Shown here piece after piece: positions 4,028 to 35,681 of a stretch of 55,417 nt of DNA (positions are counted from its first letter, which is position 1; every line of letters starts with the position of its first letter). Origin of the DNA: Rhodothermaceae bacterium (GTDB lineage Bacteria; Bacteroidota; Rhodothermia; Rhodothermales; JAHQVL01); assembly GCA_019634345.1 (NCBI GenBank), contig JAHQVL010000074.1, positions 1 to 55,417 of the forward strand, read 5' to 3'. The position numbers were made by a program, and so were the translations under genes. The notes beneath the pieces were generated by a model, which saw only the letters and a list, made by a program, of their open reading frames with translations, searched no databases and was not told the origin of the DNA.

Positions 4028-4165
4028 CCGTCACGCTTCCTATTGGTCCTATATCACAAGTGATCATGGACCGTCACACTTCCTATTGGTCCTATATCAC
4101 ACGTGATCATGGACCGTCACACTTCCTATTGGTCTTACTTCACAAGTGATTATAGAGCGTCACAC
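4028..4165. repeat. Non-coding tandem array of three 43-bp units plus a partial fourth, each with a 28-nt imperfect palindrome
   Basis: Units start at 4028, 4071 and 4114, with a partial at 4157. Consensus CCGTCACACTTCCTATTGGTCCTATATCACAAGTGATCATGGA. Confidence 0.95.
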
Positions 4166-4939: not shown

Positions 4940-5557
4940 ATGCAAGAATCATTTGAACATATCGAAAAACAGACCCTCGATGTGTACAGAAGAAATGCCG
5001 CCGCATTTGATCAGCAACGTCATAAAGGGCTGCACGAACGGGGGTGGCTAGAGCGATTCGCTGCCCTTCTACCACCAGGAGGATCGGTGTTGGATGTGGG
5101 CTGCGGTGCTGGTGAGCCCATTGCGCAGTATTTCATCGACGAAGGTTTTCAGGTTACAGGTATTGATTTTTCCGAGCCAATGATTGAATTGGCCGAGGCG
5201 AGGTATCCTGAAAATGATTGGATTTGTTGCGACATGCGAGCGTTTGATTTTGAAAGCAGGTTTGATGGAATTATTGCGTGGAATAGCTTCTTTCACCTCA
5301 CGCAGAATGATCAGCGTAGCGTTCTCAAGCGTTTTGTACAGCACTTGGCTGCTGGGGGGGTATTGATGATCACGGTAGGGCCGGAAGCCGGGGAAGTCTT
5401 GGGGCACGTCAATGGCGAAAAAGTGTATCATGCAAGCCTGTCGCCTGAAGAATACACGGCTATCTTGAAGCAATCAGGTTTGGATGTGGTAGAGTTTGTC
5501 TTTGAAGATGAAACCTGTGATTTTCAGACGGTATTGTTGGCTAAACGGAGTACCTGA
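4940..5557 (+). CDS. Class I SAM-dependent methyltransferase
   Basis: VLDVGCGAG, GIDFS, DMR and FDGIIAWNSFFHL motifs. Confidence 0.9.
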   Translation: MQESFEHIEKQTLDVYRRNAAAFDQQRHKGLHERGWLERFAALLPPGGSVLDVGCGAGEPIAQYFIDEGFQVTGIDFSEPMIELAEARYPENDWICCDMRAFDFESRFDGIIAWNSFFHLTQNDQRSVLKRFVQHLAAGGVLMITVGPEAGEVLGHVNGEKVYHASLSPEEYTAILKQSGLDVVEFVFEDETCDFQTVLLAKRST

Positions 5558-5588
5558 AGCCTGGTATTTACAAAATCTGTAAGTGAAG

Positions 5589-5615
5589 TGTAACCTATTT
5601 GTAGCTAGGTACGTC
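5589..5615 (+). promoter_or_regulatory. Putative ECF sigma-factor promoter for the DUF4097 gene
   Basis: TGTAACC (5589-5595), N16, CGTC (5612-5615) fits the general ECF AAC...CGT pattern. It ends 46 nt before the ATG. Confidence 0.55.
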
Positions 5616-5661
5616 TTGATAAACAGCTACCTATATATAAATTACTGCACTTTACAAAGCC

Positions 5662-7110
5662 ATGCTTACTCACGACATTCGATCATCTGACGACATCCGC
5701 ACTTCTGAAGACATCCGCTCATTTGCCGATATCCGCTCAAACGAGGACATCCGATCCTATAGTGATATCCGTTCAAACGAGGATATTCGTTATTCAGGTG
5801 ATATCCGCTACAACGGCGACATTCGTTTTGCGAGCGACATTCGCTCAAGAGGTGATATTCGCTTCTCCGGAGATATTCGTTCAAAGAGTGACATTCGTAA
5901 CATGAGCGACATTCGCAACGTGGGTGACATTCGTTCGAAAAGCGATATCCGATCCAACATAGATATTCGATCCGTTCACGATATCCGCTCATCCCTGTAT
6001 GCAATGATGGTTGCGTGTTTGCTCGCTATTGTATTCGTTCCCAGTGCCTCTGCATTGAGTTTAACTGAGGACCCCTCTTCGGTGAAAGACGGAGAATTGA
6101 TGATGGAAGAGACCTATCAGGTAAGTGCCGGAGAAAACCTGGTCGTATCGGTTTTTGATGCTGATGTAGAAATTGAAACCAGCGAGGGATCAGAAGCCGT
6201 AGTGGAGGTTTATTTAGATGGGCGGAATATGAACAAGGCCAAGGAATTTTTCGAAGATCAAAACTTCGAAATTACTCGAGAAGGCATTAACGTCTATATT
6301 AAAACCTATCCCAGGAGGAAAAACTACAACTGGGACCAGACTGGAGGCGCTAACATCCTTGTTAAGGTGCTGATTCCAGCTGAGTTTAATGTGAACGTTA
6401 AAACCGATGATGGTGATATTTTTGTAGATGATATAGAGGGTGAAGTTCTAATCGCTACTTCTGATGGCGATATTTCTACTGGAGAAATGGTAGGCCCAGA
6501 AATCAATATTCGCACGTCGGACGGGGACATCAACTCAGAAAACCTAGATGCTACCGGTGTGACAATTATTACATCCGATGGCGACATCACCGTGGACAAT
6601 ATAGTTTCTGATGAGCTAACTGTTCGCACATCAGACGGCGATATATCTGCAAAATATCTTTCTGGTGTTACTTCTATCTCTACTTCTGATGGAGACATTG
6701 ACCTGCGATCTGTTGAGGGAGAGGACATCAAAGTACGTACGTCCGATGGCGAAATTCGAGTAGATGAAGTAAACGCTAATTCATCTATGTTCACTACGTC
6801 CGATGGAAATATTCGACTAAATGACGTATCAGGCGAGTTGACCGCAAAGACGTCTGATGGTAATCTGAATATAAGCCTTGCCAACGCTACAGATATCAAT
6901 CTGCGAGCCGGAGATGGCGACGTGTTCATAACCGCTCCTCGGGATTACTCTGCAGAGCTATATCTGAGAGGAGAGCGTGTTGAGATGTCTTCTCGCTTTC
7001 GATTTAATGGGACATTGAAGAAAAATCAGGCGAATGGCGAAATTAATGGAGGGGAATATTCACTAGAAGCAAGATCTAGTGGTGGTAGAGTTGTTTTGGA
7101 TGGAAATTAG
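5662..7110 (+). CDS. DUF4097/adhesin-like beta-strand repeat protein with an N-terminal 18x DIRxxx extension ahead of a signal-peptide-like segment
   Basis: About 10 repeats of T(S)DG(D/E/N)I at roughly 18-20 aa spacing. Hydrophobic segment LYAMMVACLLAIVFVPSASA with an AxA end at residues 112-131. Confidence 0.8.
   Translation: MLTHDIRSSDDIRTSEDIRSFADIRSNEDIRSYSDIRSNEDIRYSGDIRYNGDIRFASDIRSRGDIRFSGDIRSKSDIRNMSDIRNVGDIRSKSDIRSNIDIRSVHDIRSSLYAMMVACLLAIVFVPSASALSLTEDPSSVKDGELMMEETYQVSAGENLVVSVFDADVEIETSEGSEAVVEVYLDGRNMNKAKEFFEDQNFEITREGINVYIKTYPRRKNYNWDQTGGANILVKVLIPAEFNVNVKTDDGDIFVDDIEGEVLIATSDGDISTGEMVGPEINIRTSDGDINSENLDATGVTIITSDGDITVDNIVSDELTVRTSDGDISAKYLSGVTSISTSDGDIDLRSVEGEDIKVRTSDGEIRVDEVNANSSMFTTSDGNIRLNDVSGELTAKTSDGNLNISLANATDINLRAGDGDVFITAPRDYSAELYLRGERVEMSSRFRFNGTLKKNQANGEINGGEYSLEARSSGGRVVLDGN
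5671..5994 (+). repeat. 18 x 18-bp coding repeat (xDIRxx hexapeptide)
   Basis: GAY-ATY-CGH recurs every 18 nt from 5674 to 5988 with no indel. Confidence 0.95.
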
Positions 7111-7270
7111 TAGCCTTGGGATAAGTTATTCATCTGTAGTGGGATTTGGGTTTGAAGAATGGGTACATCTCTTGCTCTGATGTGAGTATGTATCTTGATC
7201 TTTAACCTGAAATACGAGCAAATCAGTTTGAATGCGACGCGTTCTCTGGTTGTGAAGGGCAACGAATTCG

Positions 7271-7558
7271 ATGAATACAACGGAAGCATTTTATCTATTT
7301 GCTGAAGAAATAGTCGATAGCTTGAAGACTGTGCCTTTTAAAGAGTTGAATAGCTATGAAGGCCGGGAATATACGTGGAAGAAAGGCCGTAGAGAAGGTT
7401 CTCTTTCCATTACTATCGAAATAATTTCCCCCGAATACAAACGTGTGACTATCGATGGTAGCTTGCCGGGACGCATCTTTAGATCTCAGGGGCATCCATT
7501 TAGAAAAAGATTTCGCGCTTACGAAAATGGTGTACGCGTGCCAGAGGCACAAGAATAG
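7271..7558 (+). CDS. Hypothetical protein (95 aa)
   Basis: ATG-started ORF that fills the gap and ends 3 nt from the convergent DinB gene. No recognised motif. Confidence 0.55.
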   Translation: MNTTEAFYLFAEEIVDSLKTVPFKELNSYEGREYTWKKGRREGSLSITIEIISPEYKRVTIDGSLPGRIFRSQGHPFRKRFRAYENGVRVPEAQE

Positions 7559-24905: not shown

Positions 24906-26210
<1,305 letters not shown>

Positions 26211-31623: not shown

Positions 31624-32085
31624 ATGAGTCAAAACCATAAATCTGAAGCGATTGTGCTCTTTGATGGGGTGTGCAATCTGTGTAATGCGAGCATCAATTT
31701 TATTATTGATAATGACTCCAGGGGGTATTTCAAATTTGCTTCCTTGCAGTCTCCTGAGGCTGAAACCTATTTGAATAGATGTGCACAGAGCAGTGGGGAT
31801 GTTGAGGTGCGAAATGGGTATGACTATTTGAGCAGTGTCCTTTTGTACGAGAATGGGCAATGTTACCGTGAATCTACTGCGGTACTTCGCATCGCCAGGA
31901 AATTAAGAGGAGGATGGCCGCTGATGTATGGACTCATTCTAATTCCTGAACCCATTCGAAATGTCATTTATCACTGGGTTGCACGAAATAGATATCGCTG
32001 GTTCGGGAAGCAAGACGCTTGCCGGCTTCCCTCCCCAGAATTACGTGCTCGTTTTCTTGACGGCTTAACCTCTTCCTCTTCTTAA
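31624..32085 (+). CDS. DCC family thiol-disulfide oxidoreductase (YuxK-like)
   Basis: FDGVCNLCN, FASLQS and YHWVARNRYRWFG motifs. ATG 31624 preferred. Confidence 0.92.
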   Translation: MSQNHKSEAIVLFDGVCNLCNASINFIIDNDSRGYFKFASLQSPEAETYLNRCAQSSGDVEVRNGYDYLSSVLLYENGQCYRESTAVLRIARKLRGGWPLMYGLILIPEPIRNVIYHWVARNRYRWFGKQDACRLPSPELRARFLDGLTSSSS

Positions 32086-35000
32086 GGAGTATCTGAAGAT
32101 TTCTCCTGGAGCAGTTCGAAGTATTTCTTGATGAGCTCCTCGTAGTCAGGTGCATATCCGCTTTCGAGCGCCTCTATCAAGGCTCTACGCAATCGGTCGC
32201 TTTCTTCTGAAGGTGATAGTTCGTCAGGACTTTCTCTGAAAAATTCCTCGCCTAATTGCCCTTCTCGACGTTTTTCACGTCCGCGCTCTTGCATAGATTT
32301 AGTTGCTTCAAGCATACGGGTTAATATTTCTTGCTGCCTTTCAACCGTTCTGCGTCCTGGTCGGCTTCGTTGAAGTTCTCGGATAGTTTCTTCCATTTGC
32401 TCAGCAATGCGATTGAGATCCCCCATAAGTTCTCGTTTAAGCTCCCTGTTTCGGCTTAATTGCTTGATCTGTGAGCGTATCTGCTCTTGTTGGGATGCCA
32501 TTTGCCGGAGCCGCTGCTGCATGTCTTGCGAGAGCCGATTGCCCTGTGACTCATTCAGCATTTGTTGAATTTGCTGATTTAACTTTTGCTGCTGGCCAGC
32601 GGCGTTTTGTAATTGTTGAATCATCTGCTGCATCGACATGCCACCACCGCCGCTGCCTTGTTGGTTCATCATTTCGTTGAGCAGGTCAGAGAGTAACAAC
32701 GCCAATTCGTTTAGATGCATCATGGCCTCTTTCTGGTGGCCACTTGCCCGGTTTGCGACACGATCCGTCATCGACTCAACCGCAGAACTCATTTCGCGCA
32801 TGGCATCCCCAGCATGTTGTTGGACCTCTCTACTCATTTGAGGGATTTTTTGCGACAAGGATTGAAGAGAATCACTCACAACACGCAATCCTGAACTCAA
32901 TTCGACTTGATCCTGGGCCAGTTGGCGCATTGTTGGGCTATCGGTTGCTAGCCCTCGTACATTTTCACGTAGACCTTCTTGGAGTTGAGAAAGCGTCAGG
33001 ATATCGCTTAAGGCGCGGCGAAGGCCGGCGATGTTAATCTGCATCTGAGCACCCTGCATGCCTTGTTGCATTTGTTGCATTTGCTGCTGCATTTGCTGCA
33101 ACTGCTGCTGCATCTGCTGTTGTTGCTGCTGGGCCTGATCAAATTGCTCCTGCCGAAGCTGATCCGCATTTTCCTGCATTTGCTCGGGAATTTGCTGATC
33201 CTGAACTTGCTCATTGAGTTGCTCCATTTGCTCTGAAGGCGCATTCTCCAGTTCTTCCATCCTCTCCTGGATTTCTTTCATCTTCTGCTCGATTGCTTCC
33301 ATCTCTTCTTTCGAAAGCTCCTGCTGTTGGGCTAGCTGCTCTTTAGAGGATTGTTGTTCGCCATCCTGCTGATCGCCATCATGCTGATCGCCATCCTGCT
33401 GCTCGCCATCTTGCTGCTCGCCATCTTGCTGTTCACCATCCTGCTGCTCGCCATCTTGCTGTTCACCATCCTGCTGCTCGCCATCTTGCTGCTCGCCATC
33501 TTGCTGCTCGCCATCTTGCTGCTCGCCATCTTCTTGCTGGTTGTTGTCTTCATCTGCAGCTTCAGCAGTTTCCTCTTGCATTCGTTCTTGTTGCTCAGCG
33601 AGTTCTTCTGCTCGTCGGGCAACTTCATCCAGATCCTGTTGAACACGAATTTGTTTAAAGAGCTCTAGCGAGCGTTCGAGCCGGTTTTGATATTGATCTT
33701 CATTGATTTGGAAGTTGTTCAAAGACTCCTGCATTTGCTGCAGGTTGAGTTCCTGCATGGCTTCTTGCAACTGATTCAATGCATCCATGAGTTCTGGAGA
33801 ATTGATCTCTTCCAGTACCTGTTGCATTTCTTCATAGAGCTGCTGCGTTTCGTCTGAAGACAGGTTATTGTTCTCCATTTGTTGAGTCATTTCTTCAAAT
33901 GACTCATTTAGGGATTCAACCTTGCTCTCCAGTTCCGATTGCTTTTCTTTGATTTGCTCAAGTTGGCGTTGATCTTCCCAATCACTCTCAAGCTTGTTTC
34001 GGAGCTCATCTTGTAATTCCTTGAACTGCTCATCGATATCTCGTGTATCCTTGAGGAGTTCCTCCATTTCATCTTGAACGTCATCCTCACGCTGTTCGAG
34101 GTCTTTGTATTGTTCAGCCAGGGAAGGGAGTCTTAGAAGTTGAGTTTGGCTCTTCGAAGATTTGAATCCTGAATACGAATCATTGTCCCAAACCTGAATA
34201 TAATATTCTATGGCATCTCCCGGGACTGGATCAAGAAGAGGCGTTTCTCCCAGATCCCAGTCAAATAAGATATCCTGGTCCAAAGATGAGCGGTCATTTA
34301 TTTGGAGAGTAATGGACTCGAAGTTTGGCATCGGTTCGCCGAATCGTGACTCTGCCAACCTGTAGTAGAGCCGCAATCGATTGAATCCGAAGTCATCAGT
34401 AATTCGAGAGGCAAGGGTGGTTGATAATGTTTCGTTGAGTTCGGAGAGCGGTTCTGGAGATAAGAGTACTGCCGTTGGGTACCCATCTTGCAGCAACTTC
34501 ATCGAGTATCGTATTGGATTGCTATTTTCTGTATCGTTAGCATCCTTGACAACTAGATGATAAGTCCCCTCTCGGGTGAGAGCAAAGGACCCCGAAGCTC
34601 CACCTGGCCTTACTTCAAGCGTATCTCGAACTCCGTTATCAAATTCCACATAGGCTTCGGTAATATCGGGGCCTCCAATAAGTGCGTCCAGGTTCACTCT
34701 CGTTCCTGGTAGTGCCTGGATGTCACCAACATTGGGTTCGAGCCTTTGCTGTGGGATCCTTGAATAAGCGGGAGACTCCAGTGATACCTGAATAGACCGA
34801 ATAATAGGGCGCTCGACGATATCTACGTCGTACCAGGGAGTAGTTACTGGATTGGCTTGAAGGCTGTAGTTGAATGATCTACGCACGTTTACAAAGGTAC
34901 GGGCATAGGCACCTGAAGAGTCTGGATAAAGAGACTCTTCTACAATTTTGTCTTCAAGTTTATCTTTATAGAGTAGAGTCAGTGAAGTAGGTAATTCTTC

Positions 35001-35681
35001 GCCTGTAAGTGCAATACTTATTCGGAGCGAATCCCCACGTAGCAATTCAACTGAGCCAGGGGAGACTTGCATTTGAAATAAAGCCGGTCGGTCAAACTCA
35101 GCCCCAGGCGTTAATAAGCGCTGGGAAGCACCCATGAATGAATTGGGAGCCGCAACAAGAAATACGATGAGCCCCAGCAGCGGAATAGCAGCGAATTTTG
35201 ATGCATTCACGGCACGGTCAAACGATTCCATTTTCTCGAATTCAACACTCTCAATTTCTTTGCCCAGAGACATCACTGCATGGTTGACAAACTCATTAGA
35301 GGCAGAGCTCCGTTTGCCTTCTGCAAGATGGAGTAAGTTCAGAAGCCTGTCCGCTACCTGTGGGAAGTAGGATCCAATATCTTTGGCCAGTTTGGCTTCA
35401 CTTGCACCAGATAGAACACCGGAGAAACGCAACAAGGGAAGAATTACAAACCATACGAGTACGCCAAGTCCAAGAAGGAGGGTAGTGCCAGTTAGAACTA
35501 TCCGAACGGTAGAAGCGAGCCAGAAGCCTGCTTCAAGAGCGGTTGAAAAAAGCCATAGACCGGCAAGTACACCAAGCAAAATTACGGCTCCAAAAACTAT
35601 ATGCGTCAGGTATCTTCTCTGGGCAGTGCGCTTTAATCTTTTCTTGATAGATTCGATGATCTGCAGGCTCTGTTCACTCAT
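32082..35681 (-). CDS. DUF4175-like membrane-anchored Ig plus coiled-coil, Gln-rich protein
   Basis: N-terminal TMs, ADRLLN, TDDFG and VWDND motifs, a long Q/E/M-rich coiled coil, and C-terminal [12 protein letters not shown]...YEELIKKYF. Confidence 0.75.
33352..33540 (-). repeat. 15-bp coding tandem repeat, about 12 x QQDGE
   Basis: CCATC recurs every 15 nt from 33361 to 33526 (12 copies). Confidence 0.95.

Follow-up and report, generated by a model that had tools for sequence, protein, structure and literature searches.

Eighteen DIRxxx hexapeptides lie ahead of the signal-type segment of a predicted exported Toastrack protein in a Rhodothermaceae bacterium

A gapless array of 18 hexapeptides, each reading DIR plus three variable residues (DIRxxx), forms the N-terminal part of a Toastrack/DUF4097 protein encoded on contig JAHQVL010000074.1 of a Rhodothermaceae bacterium (assembly GCA_019634345.1), of which we analyzed a stretch of 55,417 nucleotides, hereafter the window. 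In two species the array is very probably translated, and purifying selection acts strongly on its D, I and R residues. With modest confidence, we read it as a lineage-specific expansion of a signal-sequence n-region, which would form the cytoplasmic, solenoid-like N-terminal domain of an exported Toastrack protein controlled by an extracytoplasmic function (ECF) sigma factor. The open reading frame (ORF), as called, encodes 482 residues (5662..7110; forward strand, like all of its parts). It comprises the start codon and residues 1–4, MLTH (5662..5673), the array at residues 5–112, predicted to be a cytoplasmic solenoid-like n-region (5674..5997), a signal-type segment at residues 113–131 (5998..6054), a predicted exported body, a Toastrack/DUF4097 beta-helix (Pfam PF13349) with TSDGDI-type strands (6055..7107), and the stop codon TAG (7108..7110).

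The array is built of 18 head-to-tail units of 18 bp, each with the form GAY-ATY-CGH followed by nine variable bases. The non-wobble bases of the DIR codons (unit positions 1, 2, 4, 5, 7 and 8) were identical in 18/18 units, and the wobble positions were mixed (position 3, C9/T9; position 6, T10/C8; position 9, A4/C8/T6). A preliminary description of this DNA had reported 18 DIR units whose codons vary at wobble positions only, and both points were borne out in every unit. Its list of variable tripeptides was likewise reproduced exactly: SSD, TSE, SFA, SNE, SYS, SNE, YSG, YNG and FAS in units 1–9, and SRG, FSG, SKS, NMS, NVG, SKS, SNI, SVH and SSL in units 10–18. The residue range it gave, 4–111, is shifted by one to 5–112. 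All 17 adjacent unit pairs matched a two-unit pattern, compared with 0 matches in 100 dinucleotide-preserving shuffles, and a three-unit pattern was confined to the array, with 16 matches across the 6.3-Mb draft genome (89.9% complete) and 0 for the reversed-pattern control. Tandem Repeats Finder saw the array just as fragments with periods of 18 and 36, because its units are only 60–80% alike. The tract is polar in composition (Ser 21, Asp 19 and Arg 19 per 114 residues), with a net charge of -1 in the window and +1 in the orthologue described below.

The preliminary description had also left the repeat to be confirmed in raw reads. Logan contigs of one public run (X1) covered positions 5400–5879 and 5854–7200 at 99% or more, which supports both sides of the array; the contigs end, overlap and branch at 5850–5883 within it, and the full copy number is not bridged by this run alone. 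At the same place three 34-base records branch with a depth of 4–5 versus 11, and a single synonymous variant, CGC>CGT, was present at 5844. This pattern suggests strain variation within the array rather than misassembly. Three other runs (X2–X4), which contained 0.60, 0.60 and 0.26 of the sampled words, contributed no contigs. That the array is real is supported by an independent orthologue with 17 units.

This orthologue came from a scan of metagenome contigs. Two loci were returned, L162 and L163, identical to each other and carried by contigs of ~0.96–0.98 Mb; both may derive from a single data set that was filed twice. The signal segment and body of the L162 protein were identical to those of the window protein at 332/370 positions (90%), and the window and L162 had in common a HAD hydrolase gene, a methyltransferase gene, the array gene, a 95–98-aa ORF and a DinB gene. 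The L162 protein starts with MLTH, the codons of which are nearly unchanged, and continues with 17 DIRxxx units in which DIR is kept in 17/17. D, I and R are thus invariant in 35/35 units over two species. The units of the two arrays are collinear, with exactly one 18-bp unit missing near unit 13, which answers the question of copy-number variation raised in the preliminary description (17 versus 18 units).

Selection was assessed by Nei-Gojobori counts of nonsynonymous (dN) and synonymous (dS) substitutions over the 17 aligned unit pairs. The DIR codons (51 codon pairs) gave a dN of 0 and a dS of 0.40 (11 synonymous changes), the variable codons (51 codon pairs) a dN of 0.384 and a dS of 0.897, and the signal segment plus body (370 codon pairs) a dN of 0.056 and a dS of 0.996. 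The resulting dN/dS was 0.43 for the variable codons compared with 0.056 for the body. Within the variable half, 7–11 of 17 residues per position were identical between the window and L162; unit residue 4 was the most constrained (11/17 identical, dN/dS 0.18), and residues 5 and 6 had dN/dS values of about 0.5–0.76. Counted by unit position over the 17 pairs, the differences were 0, 0, 2, 0, 0, 4, 0, 0, 5, 3, 4, 8, 7, 4, 8, 8, 3 and 9. The codon periodicity extends into the variable half, with 8, 8 and 9 differences at third positions versus 3–8 at first and second positions. The absence of any nonsynonymous change in 51 DIR codon pairs, set against a body dS of about 1, and the codon-periodic differences uphold the earlier proposal that selection acts on the peptide and that the array is not the product of recent slippage.

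The array is in frame with the body, and this frame (+1) had a ratio of nonsynonymous to synonymous differences per site (pN/pS) of 0.37 and no stop codons, which were absent from all 108 + 102 repeat codons, variable and DIR, of the window and L162. Each of the other five frames contained 2–15 stop codons; four of them had a pN/pS of 1.04–1.69, and frame -2 also had a low value (0.39), yet with 7 stops. Could the array instead be non-coding, a DNA or RNA element of 18 GAYATYCG sites in a long 5' leader, with the protein starting at Met115 or Met116? These codons do lie at 6004 and 6007 as the preliminary description stated, two homologues (P0003 and P0005) are called from a Met in the h-region, and a start at Met115 would still leave the h- and c-regions; like repeats in general, the array leaves its other frames partly open. 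Such a start would, however, give a signal peptide without a charged n-region. The third-position variation in frame +1, the periodicity in the variable codons, the zero stops and the whole-unit indel all speak against a non-coding element, Rfam had no match to it at E <= 1 (positions 5400–6200), and the promoter and conserved leader described next lie at a canonical distance from the ATG at 5662, not from 6004. We regard this explanation as very improbable. The array is taken as coding because the wobble pattern within it, the constraint in a second species and the position of the promoter are three independent lines that agree.

An ECF-sigma-type promoter motif, GTAACC-N16-CGTC, is located on the forward strand at 5590..5615, as read from the sequence. 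Position 5589, with which the preliminary description began, belongs to this motif and not to the start of the ORF. The G of GTAAC stands 72 nt before the ATG at 5662 in the window and 72 nt before the corresponding ATG in L162. When up to 160 nt upstream of the inferred start were scanned in 20 loci, including L162 and the genome's own paralogue, GTAAC-N14-18-CGT[ACT] was present in 17/20, mostly 62–75 nt before the ATG, compared with a background of 0.0115 per 160 nt in these loci. Genome-wide, GTAACC-N15-18-CGTC was not enriched (26 matches versus 76 for the reversed control), and a second window match of the promoter pattern, at 26115, falls inside the enolase gene; support for the promoter therefore comes from its conservation among homologous loci and not from the motif alone. 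Of the 104 nt upstream of the ATG, 92 were identical between the window and L162, while the proportion of synonymous differences in the body (pS) was 0.55, and the 23 nt preceding the ATG were nearly unchanged. Since the promoter lies at the canonical distance from it, the ATG at 5662 is the predicted ancestral start, which places the array within the n-region of the signal sequence and agrees with the earlier claim that the tract is N-terminal to a signal-type hydrophobic segment. The ESM Atlas contains the 482-aa form letter for letter, which tells only of the start chosen by a gene caller. A candidate sigma-70-type promoter at 5616–5643 was rejected as within chance (3 found versus 3.9 expected).

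We infer from the motif that the gene is under ECF sigma control. The genome contains seven matches to the Toastrack body, and the closest paralogue, on contig C324, is a protein of 439 aa with 50% identity to the body and a GTAAC...CGTA motif 75 nt before its start. Its gene heads a cluster (C324:4711-7841, locus L164) that encodes this DUF4097 protein, a DUF4097-like protein of 328 aa whose score narrowly misses the Pfam cut-off, and an ECF sigma factor; this sigma factor is a candidate regulator of the window gene. Because the cluster both shares the promoter motif and encodes an ECF sigma factor, the window gene looks like a relocated member of an ECF regulon.

The array is followed by a hydrophobic segment of 14 residues, YAMMVACLLAIVFV, and then by P-S-A-S-A|L, with a predicted signal peptidase I cut after Ala131. 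The corresponding segment of L162 is YTMMVACLLAIVFVPSVSA|S (P-S-V-S-A|S), in which the small residues at -3 and -1 are kept. By inspection, the h- and c-regions are of the Sec type (10–15 hydrophobic residues, small residues at -3 and -1); the short positive n-region of such signals is absent, the n-region here having 112 residues and a net charge of -1 (+1 in L162). An Arg precedes the h-region by 6 residues, the h-region is followed by an acidic stretch, and there is no second hydrophobic stretch within residues 1–112. Residues 113–131 align with the signal peptides of homologues, and in P0001, P0002 and P0004, the closest homologues whose n-region is complete, that region is short and the signal peptide ordinary. 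Because of this alignment, the body is expected to be exported and the tract to stay on the cis side. Together with the short h-region, the small residues at -3 and -1 and the distribution of charge, it suggests that the tract is probably cytoplasmic, in an N-in/C-out orientation.

This predicted topology bears on the idea, put forward in the preliminary description, that the tract acts as an intramolecular chaperone, its GDIR strands serving as a template for DGDI strands in the Toastrack body. D-I and an alternating pattern are common to both kinds of repeat, but tract and body would sit on opposite sides of the membrane, and the 38 homologues, as called, are without the tract (P0003 and P0005 from the h-region Met), so the body needs none. 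We consider a chaperone role extremely improbable.

The 18 hexapeptides amount to 108 residues, or six 18-residue turns at three hexapeptides per turn. The ESM Atlas model of the whole protein had a predicted template modelling (TM) score of 0.68 and a predicted local distance difference test score of 0.74. Residues 1–114 of this model resembled bactofilin clusters (TM 0.94 and 0.82), a DUF342 cluster (0.90) and a FapA-containing cluster (0.83). The sub-threshold Pfam matches of the tract with a known fold were all solenoids (MinC_C, E 0.008; Bactofilin, E 0.045; FapA, E 0.12), and bacterial hexapeptide proteins that matched the tract (such as P0207, P0160 and P0135, with GDIRSN among their hexapeptides) weakly matched the same three families. 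BLASTP against the genome's own bactofilin gave an E of 0.001 at 26% identity. No sequence family reached its cut-off with the tract: the Bactofilin profile PF04519 scored 14.4 bits with the tract (E 0.045) and 12.1 with the whole protein, below its cut-off of 27.9; a genome-wide search with PF04519 at E <= 0.001 returned only the true bactofilin on contig C379; the LED repeat PF20854 scored 24.8 bits with the tract and 21.4 with the whole protein, below a cut-off of 59; and no Hexapep-type Pfam family matched at E <= 1, Arg following Ile in 18/18 units. A sequence search against solved structures returned only two chance matches, to antibody Fab chains (E 0.12 and 0.61).

In passages of a bactofilin study (bioRxiv 10.1101/617639), the domain is described as right-handed and triangular, with six windings of ~17 residues each; its core is hydrophobic, charged residues form a network on its surface, and glycines occupy its corners. 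The tract as modelled is alike in length and geometry (six turns of 18, compared with the six windings of ~17 in that account) to the group that includes bactofilins (PF04519), FapA, DUF342 and the MinC C-terminal domain. It also resembles bactofilins in its predicted cytoplasmic, membrane-adjacent location and charge-rich surface. Bactofilin repeats, including those of the C379 protein, are degenerate, in contrast to the perfect, invariant window tract, and their core is made of Leu, Val and Ala, whereas that of the tract would be Ile and Ser. With roughly equal weight for and against, the tract may be a bactofilin-like solenoid in shape, as modelled, and not by homology. The preliminary description had noted that hexapeptide repeats can form a left-handed beta-helix with three repeats per rung. 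Three repeats per rung fits the ESM Atlas model; its nearest models, however, are of the bactofilin and DUF342 type and not the left-handed acyltransferase helix. The tract has in common with the LpxA-type acyltransferase hexapeptides a six-residue period, one aliphatic residue per repeat and an expected three repeats per turn. The left-handed hexapeptide consensus is [LIV]-[GAED]-X2-[STAV]-X; in the tract the aliphatic residue is followed by Arg in 18/18 units and not by Gly, Ala, Glu or Asp, and the nearest models belong to right-handed families.

A possible though unlikely alternative is that the tract is translated and cytoplasmic but unfolded, a neutral, well-mixed polyampholyte carrying 17–18 D-I-R linear motifs, which would gather multiple molecules of a single partner (for instance a chaperone, protease, kinase, or sigma or anti-sigma component) or act as a ruler or spacer. 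Absolute conservation of D, I and R in 35/35 units beside the nearly free drift of positions 5 and 6 (dN/dS about 0.5–0.76) would suit such an array of motifs, as would the polar composition and the failure of any sequence family to reach threshold. The exact six-residue phase, the restriction of indels to whole units and the conserved position 4 are better explained by a structural register, and the Atlas model is a compact solenoid.

Under the solenoid reading, transcription would proceed from the conserved GTAACC-N16-CGTC promoter and translation from the ATG at 5662, and the 108-residue DIRxxx array would emerge first and remain in the cytoplasm. There it would fold as a six-turn triangular beta-solenoid with three hexapeptides per turn, in which Ile and the fourth residue (mostly Ser or aromatic) would point inward and the surface would bear neutral salt-bridge ladders of Asp and Arg. 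The 14-residue hydrophobic segment would then insert N-in and drive export of the Toastrack body. Left uncut, the chain would be a bitopic protein with the solenoid as its handle in the cytoplasm; a cut by signal peptidase after A-S-A131 would instead yield a membrane-held leader of 131 residues. As a guess, the solenoid might stack on itself or serve for docking on the inner side of the membrane.

Several observations weigh against this reading. The fold comes from a single language-model prediction of an orphan perfect repeat, and such models can invent solenoids. Only ~1/6 of the residues are strongly hydrophobic, and a half-Ser core would be unusually polar compared with the all-hydrophobic core of bactofilin. 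Known solenoid repeats do not keep three residues as strictly as D, I and R are kept here (18/18), which suggests a recognition motif. The Toastrack domain has been argued, in passages of PMC11237479, to be usually intracellular. At the nucleotide level, AGR, CGG and ATA each occur in 0/18 of the relevant DIR codons, against a genome usage of 23.5%, 17.9% and 16.8%; the DIR codons have a lower dS (0.40) than the body (0.996); and units 2 (5692–5709) and 11 (5854–5871) are identical between the window and L162 in 18/18 bases. The missing codons and the low dS would also favor the non-coding element weighed above. Codon preference, saturation of twofold sites or an added constraint on the nucleotide sequence may account for these three features.

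The second of the two outcomes has been taken further in the proposal that the leader is cut after Ala131 and freed by an intramembrane protease, to act as an export-coupled cytoplasmic signal or self-stacking scaffold in an ECF envelope-stress circuit. The 14-residue h-region and P-S-A-S-A|L (P-S-V-S-A|S in L162) provide a classical signal-peptidase context in both species, and homologues have ordinary, cleavable-looking signal peptides at the same site. The ECF-type promoter is kept, and the paralogous cluster encodes an ECF sigma factor; no sigma or anti-sigma gene, however, adjoins the window copy. A precedent is found among long signal peptides of eukaryotic viruses with roles after targeting, such as the 98-residue signal peptide of mouse mammary tumour virus (MMTV), as covered in parts of PMC8725593. 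We consider a freed, signalling leader rather improbable.

The body itself is an ordinary DUF4097 member. It matched Toastrack/DUF4097 (PF13349) at residues 159–348 with an E of 7.6e-37 and 127.4 bits, against a cut-off of 22.9. A protein search returned 713 homologues at E <= 0.001, and 55 invariant columns were common to the window body and 36 homologues. The five closest homologues (P0001–P0005) had 63–67% identity. The tract was absent from the 38 homologues inspected as called (of the 713, the 34 best-listed plus P0036, P0038, P0044 and P0063), of which P0003 and P0005, called from a Met at the h-region, may have an uncalled upstream extension. The n-region of P0002, MHTMPDSRSVKASLF, is faintly like MLTHDIRS...SLY and hints at a seed of the array expansion. 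In P0004, TDAATV-type hexapeptide repeats directly follow the signal peptide, and the more distant homologues (P0006–P0036) have a short basic tail, an 18-residue anchor and then His/Asp/Glu-rich repeats. In-frame repeats seem to arise readily at the 5' end of genes in this family.

The array appears to be an orphan, restricted to its lineage as far as the searches reach. Among 285 genomes of the order, the array DNA pattern was found in 1, the window's own, and was absent from the other 284; none contained a homologue with more than 57% identity. In a genome of the same genus (G001), the upstream methyltransferase is present (62% identity) with a different gene after it, and the only close homologue is an orthologue of the C324 paralogue. 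Residues 1–114 had 128 matches at E <= 0.001 in a library of 1.84 billion representatives; the 24 of these that were inspected were low-complexity D[IV]R-type or unrelated repeats, none with a Toastrack body. In a library of 5.8 billion, limited to proteins of 30–844 aa, nothing matched at E <= 0.001. The three-unit DNA pattern occurred in at least 120 stretches across 185,579 species genomes, in chains of 3 to 11 units; the 30 longest of these 120 consist of near-identical units, often with stops in frame, unlike the window array, which is old, diverged and perfectly in phase.

Ten neighbouring ORFs were scanned; they encode an ABC permease, a solute-binding protein, an adenosine deaminase, SseB, a HAD hydrolase, a methyltransferase, DinB and three proteins without a family. 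To judge from these assignments, the neighbours of the array gene are unrelated housekeeping genes. The S-adenosylmethionine-dependent methyltransferase gene directly upstream would fit a further proposal of the preliminary description, that the tract is a multi-cassette peptide precursor. Such a precursor would resemble those of ribosomally synthesized and post-translationally modified peptides, DIR serving for recognition or cleavage beside cores made of xxx. Multi-core precursors of the cyanobactin type do have conserved flanks and hypervariable cores, and the array recalls them. The three-residue cores, however, drift almost neutrally (7–11/17 identical per position), the ten ORFs include no protease, cyclase, radical-SAM or transporter gene for maturation, the methyltransferase is also present in G001 without an array gene beside it, and the tract runs on, in one protein, into a signal segment and a large conserved body. 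We regard a peptide precursor as exceedingly improbable.

Compared with known systems, the tract lies outside all families tested (Bactofilin, Hexapep, LED_rpt and ESPR, the extended signal peptide region), and we place it either with solenoid repeats or with the long N-terminal extensions that precede signal or anchor sequences. A tract of this kind fused ahead of a signal segment and an exported domain was not found among the 38 Toastrack homologues or the 24 repeat matches. ESPR-type signals are roughly 50–60 residues long. In the ESPR of autotransporters, in NtraC-type signal peptides and in the 98-residue signal peptide of MMTV, extra sequence stands N-terminal to a normal h/c core, as in the window protein. 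The ESPR is described in passages of PMC2805444 as a charged and hydrophobic N1-H1 extension on type V and two-partner secretion proteins, and functions beyond targeting have been proposed for extended signal peptides, both of autotransporters and of eukaryotic and viral proteins, in parts of three sources (PMC2805444, PMC2447879, PMC8725593). The window protein departs from the N1-H1-N2-H2-C organization, its n-region being without a second hydrophobic stretch; it has no autotransporter or two-partner secretion domain in Pfam, and its extension is 112 residues long and includes perfect repeats. A limited literature search on long signal peptides found no case of a bacterial n-region repeat domain of more than 100 residues.

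Among Toastrack envelope-stress proteins, comparison was made with LiaG, YvlB and the C-terminal part of LiaX. The window body is a clear PF13349 member with weak similarity to LiaG and LiaX, below the profile cut-offs, and the gene is linked to an ECF sigma factor through the shared promoter motif and the paralogous DUF4097-DUF4097-sigma cluster. Passages of PMC11237479 infer that the Toastrack domain is mostly intracellular and C-terminal to membrane domains; the window subfamily, unlike the proteins described there, has signal peptides or N-in anchors and a body that is probably periplasmic. None of the described Toastrack partners PspC, LiaI-LiaF-TM, SHOCT-like and HAAS is present with the window protein.

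An n-region normally comprises a few residues and is regarded as a disposable part of the signal peptide. In the window protein, a perfect repeat of 108 residues has been kept in this position under very strong selection, though synonymous sites are near saturation; selection of this strength across such divergence implies that the array does something. If it is a folded cytoplasmic solenoid, an exported Toastrack protein would gain a handle across the membrane, a domain combination unreported among these envelope-stress proteins. Were the tract cut off, it would be, to our knowledge, by far the longest functional bacterial signal peptide, and a freed leader with a role of its own would be a bacterial counterpart of the functional long signal peptides of eukaryotic viruses. 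With three of its six positions invariant and the others nearly free, the array also offers a clean natural example for studies of solenoid or motif-array design; the practical gain will be modest until its function is found.

Three further features of the window were recorded. Just downstream of the array gene, a 95-aa ORF on the forward strand (7271–7558) had no Pfam or NCBIfam match and was 85% identical to its L162 counterpart. By this conservation it reads as a real, conserved small gene, possibly co-transcribed with the array gene. Between the SseB-like and HAD hydrolase genes, a 43-bp unit is repeated 3.2 times (4028–4165; 90% matches), each copy containing TCACA[AC]GTGATCATGG; these repeats may be regulator binding sites. 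Finally, ORF 32082..35681 on the reverse strand encodes a protein of 1199 aa with N-terminal membrane segments and a Gln/Glu-rich part, in which a 15-bp unit repeated 11.7 times (33358–33532) specifies ~12 EQQDG pentapeptides. This repeat looks like ordinary, young low-complexity growth, unlike the old, diverged DIR array.

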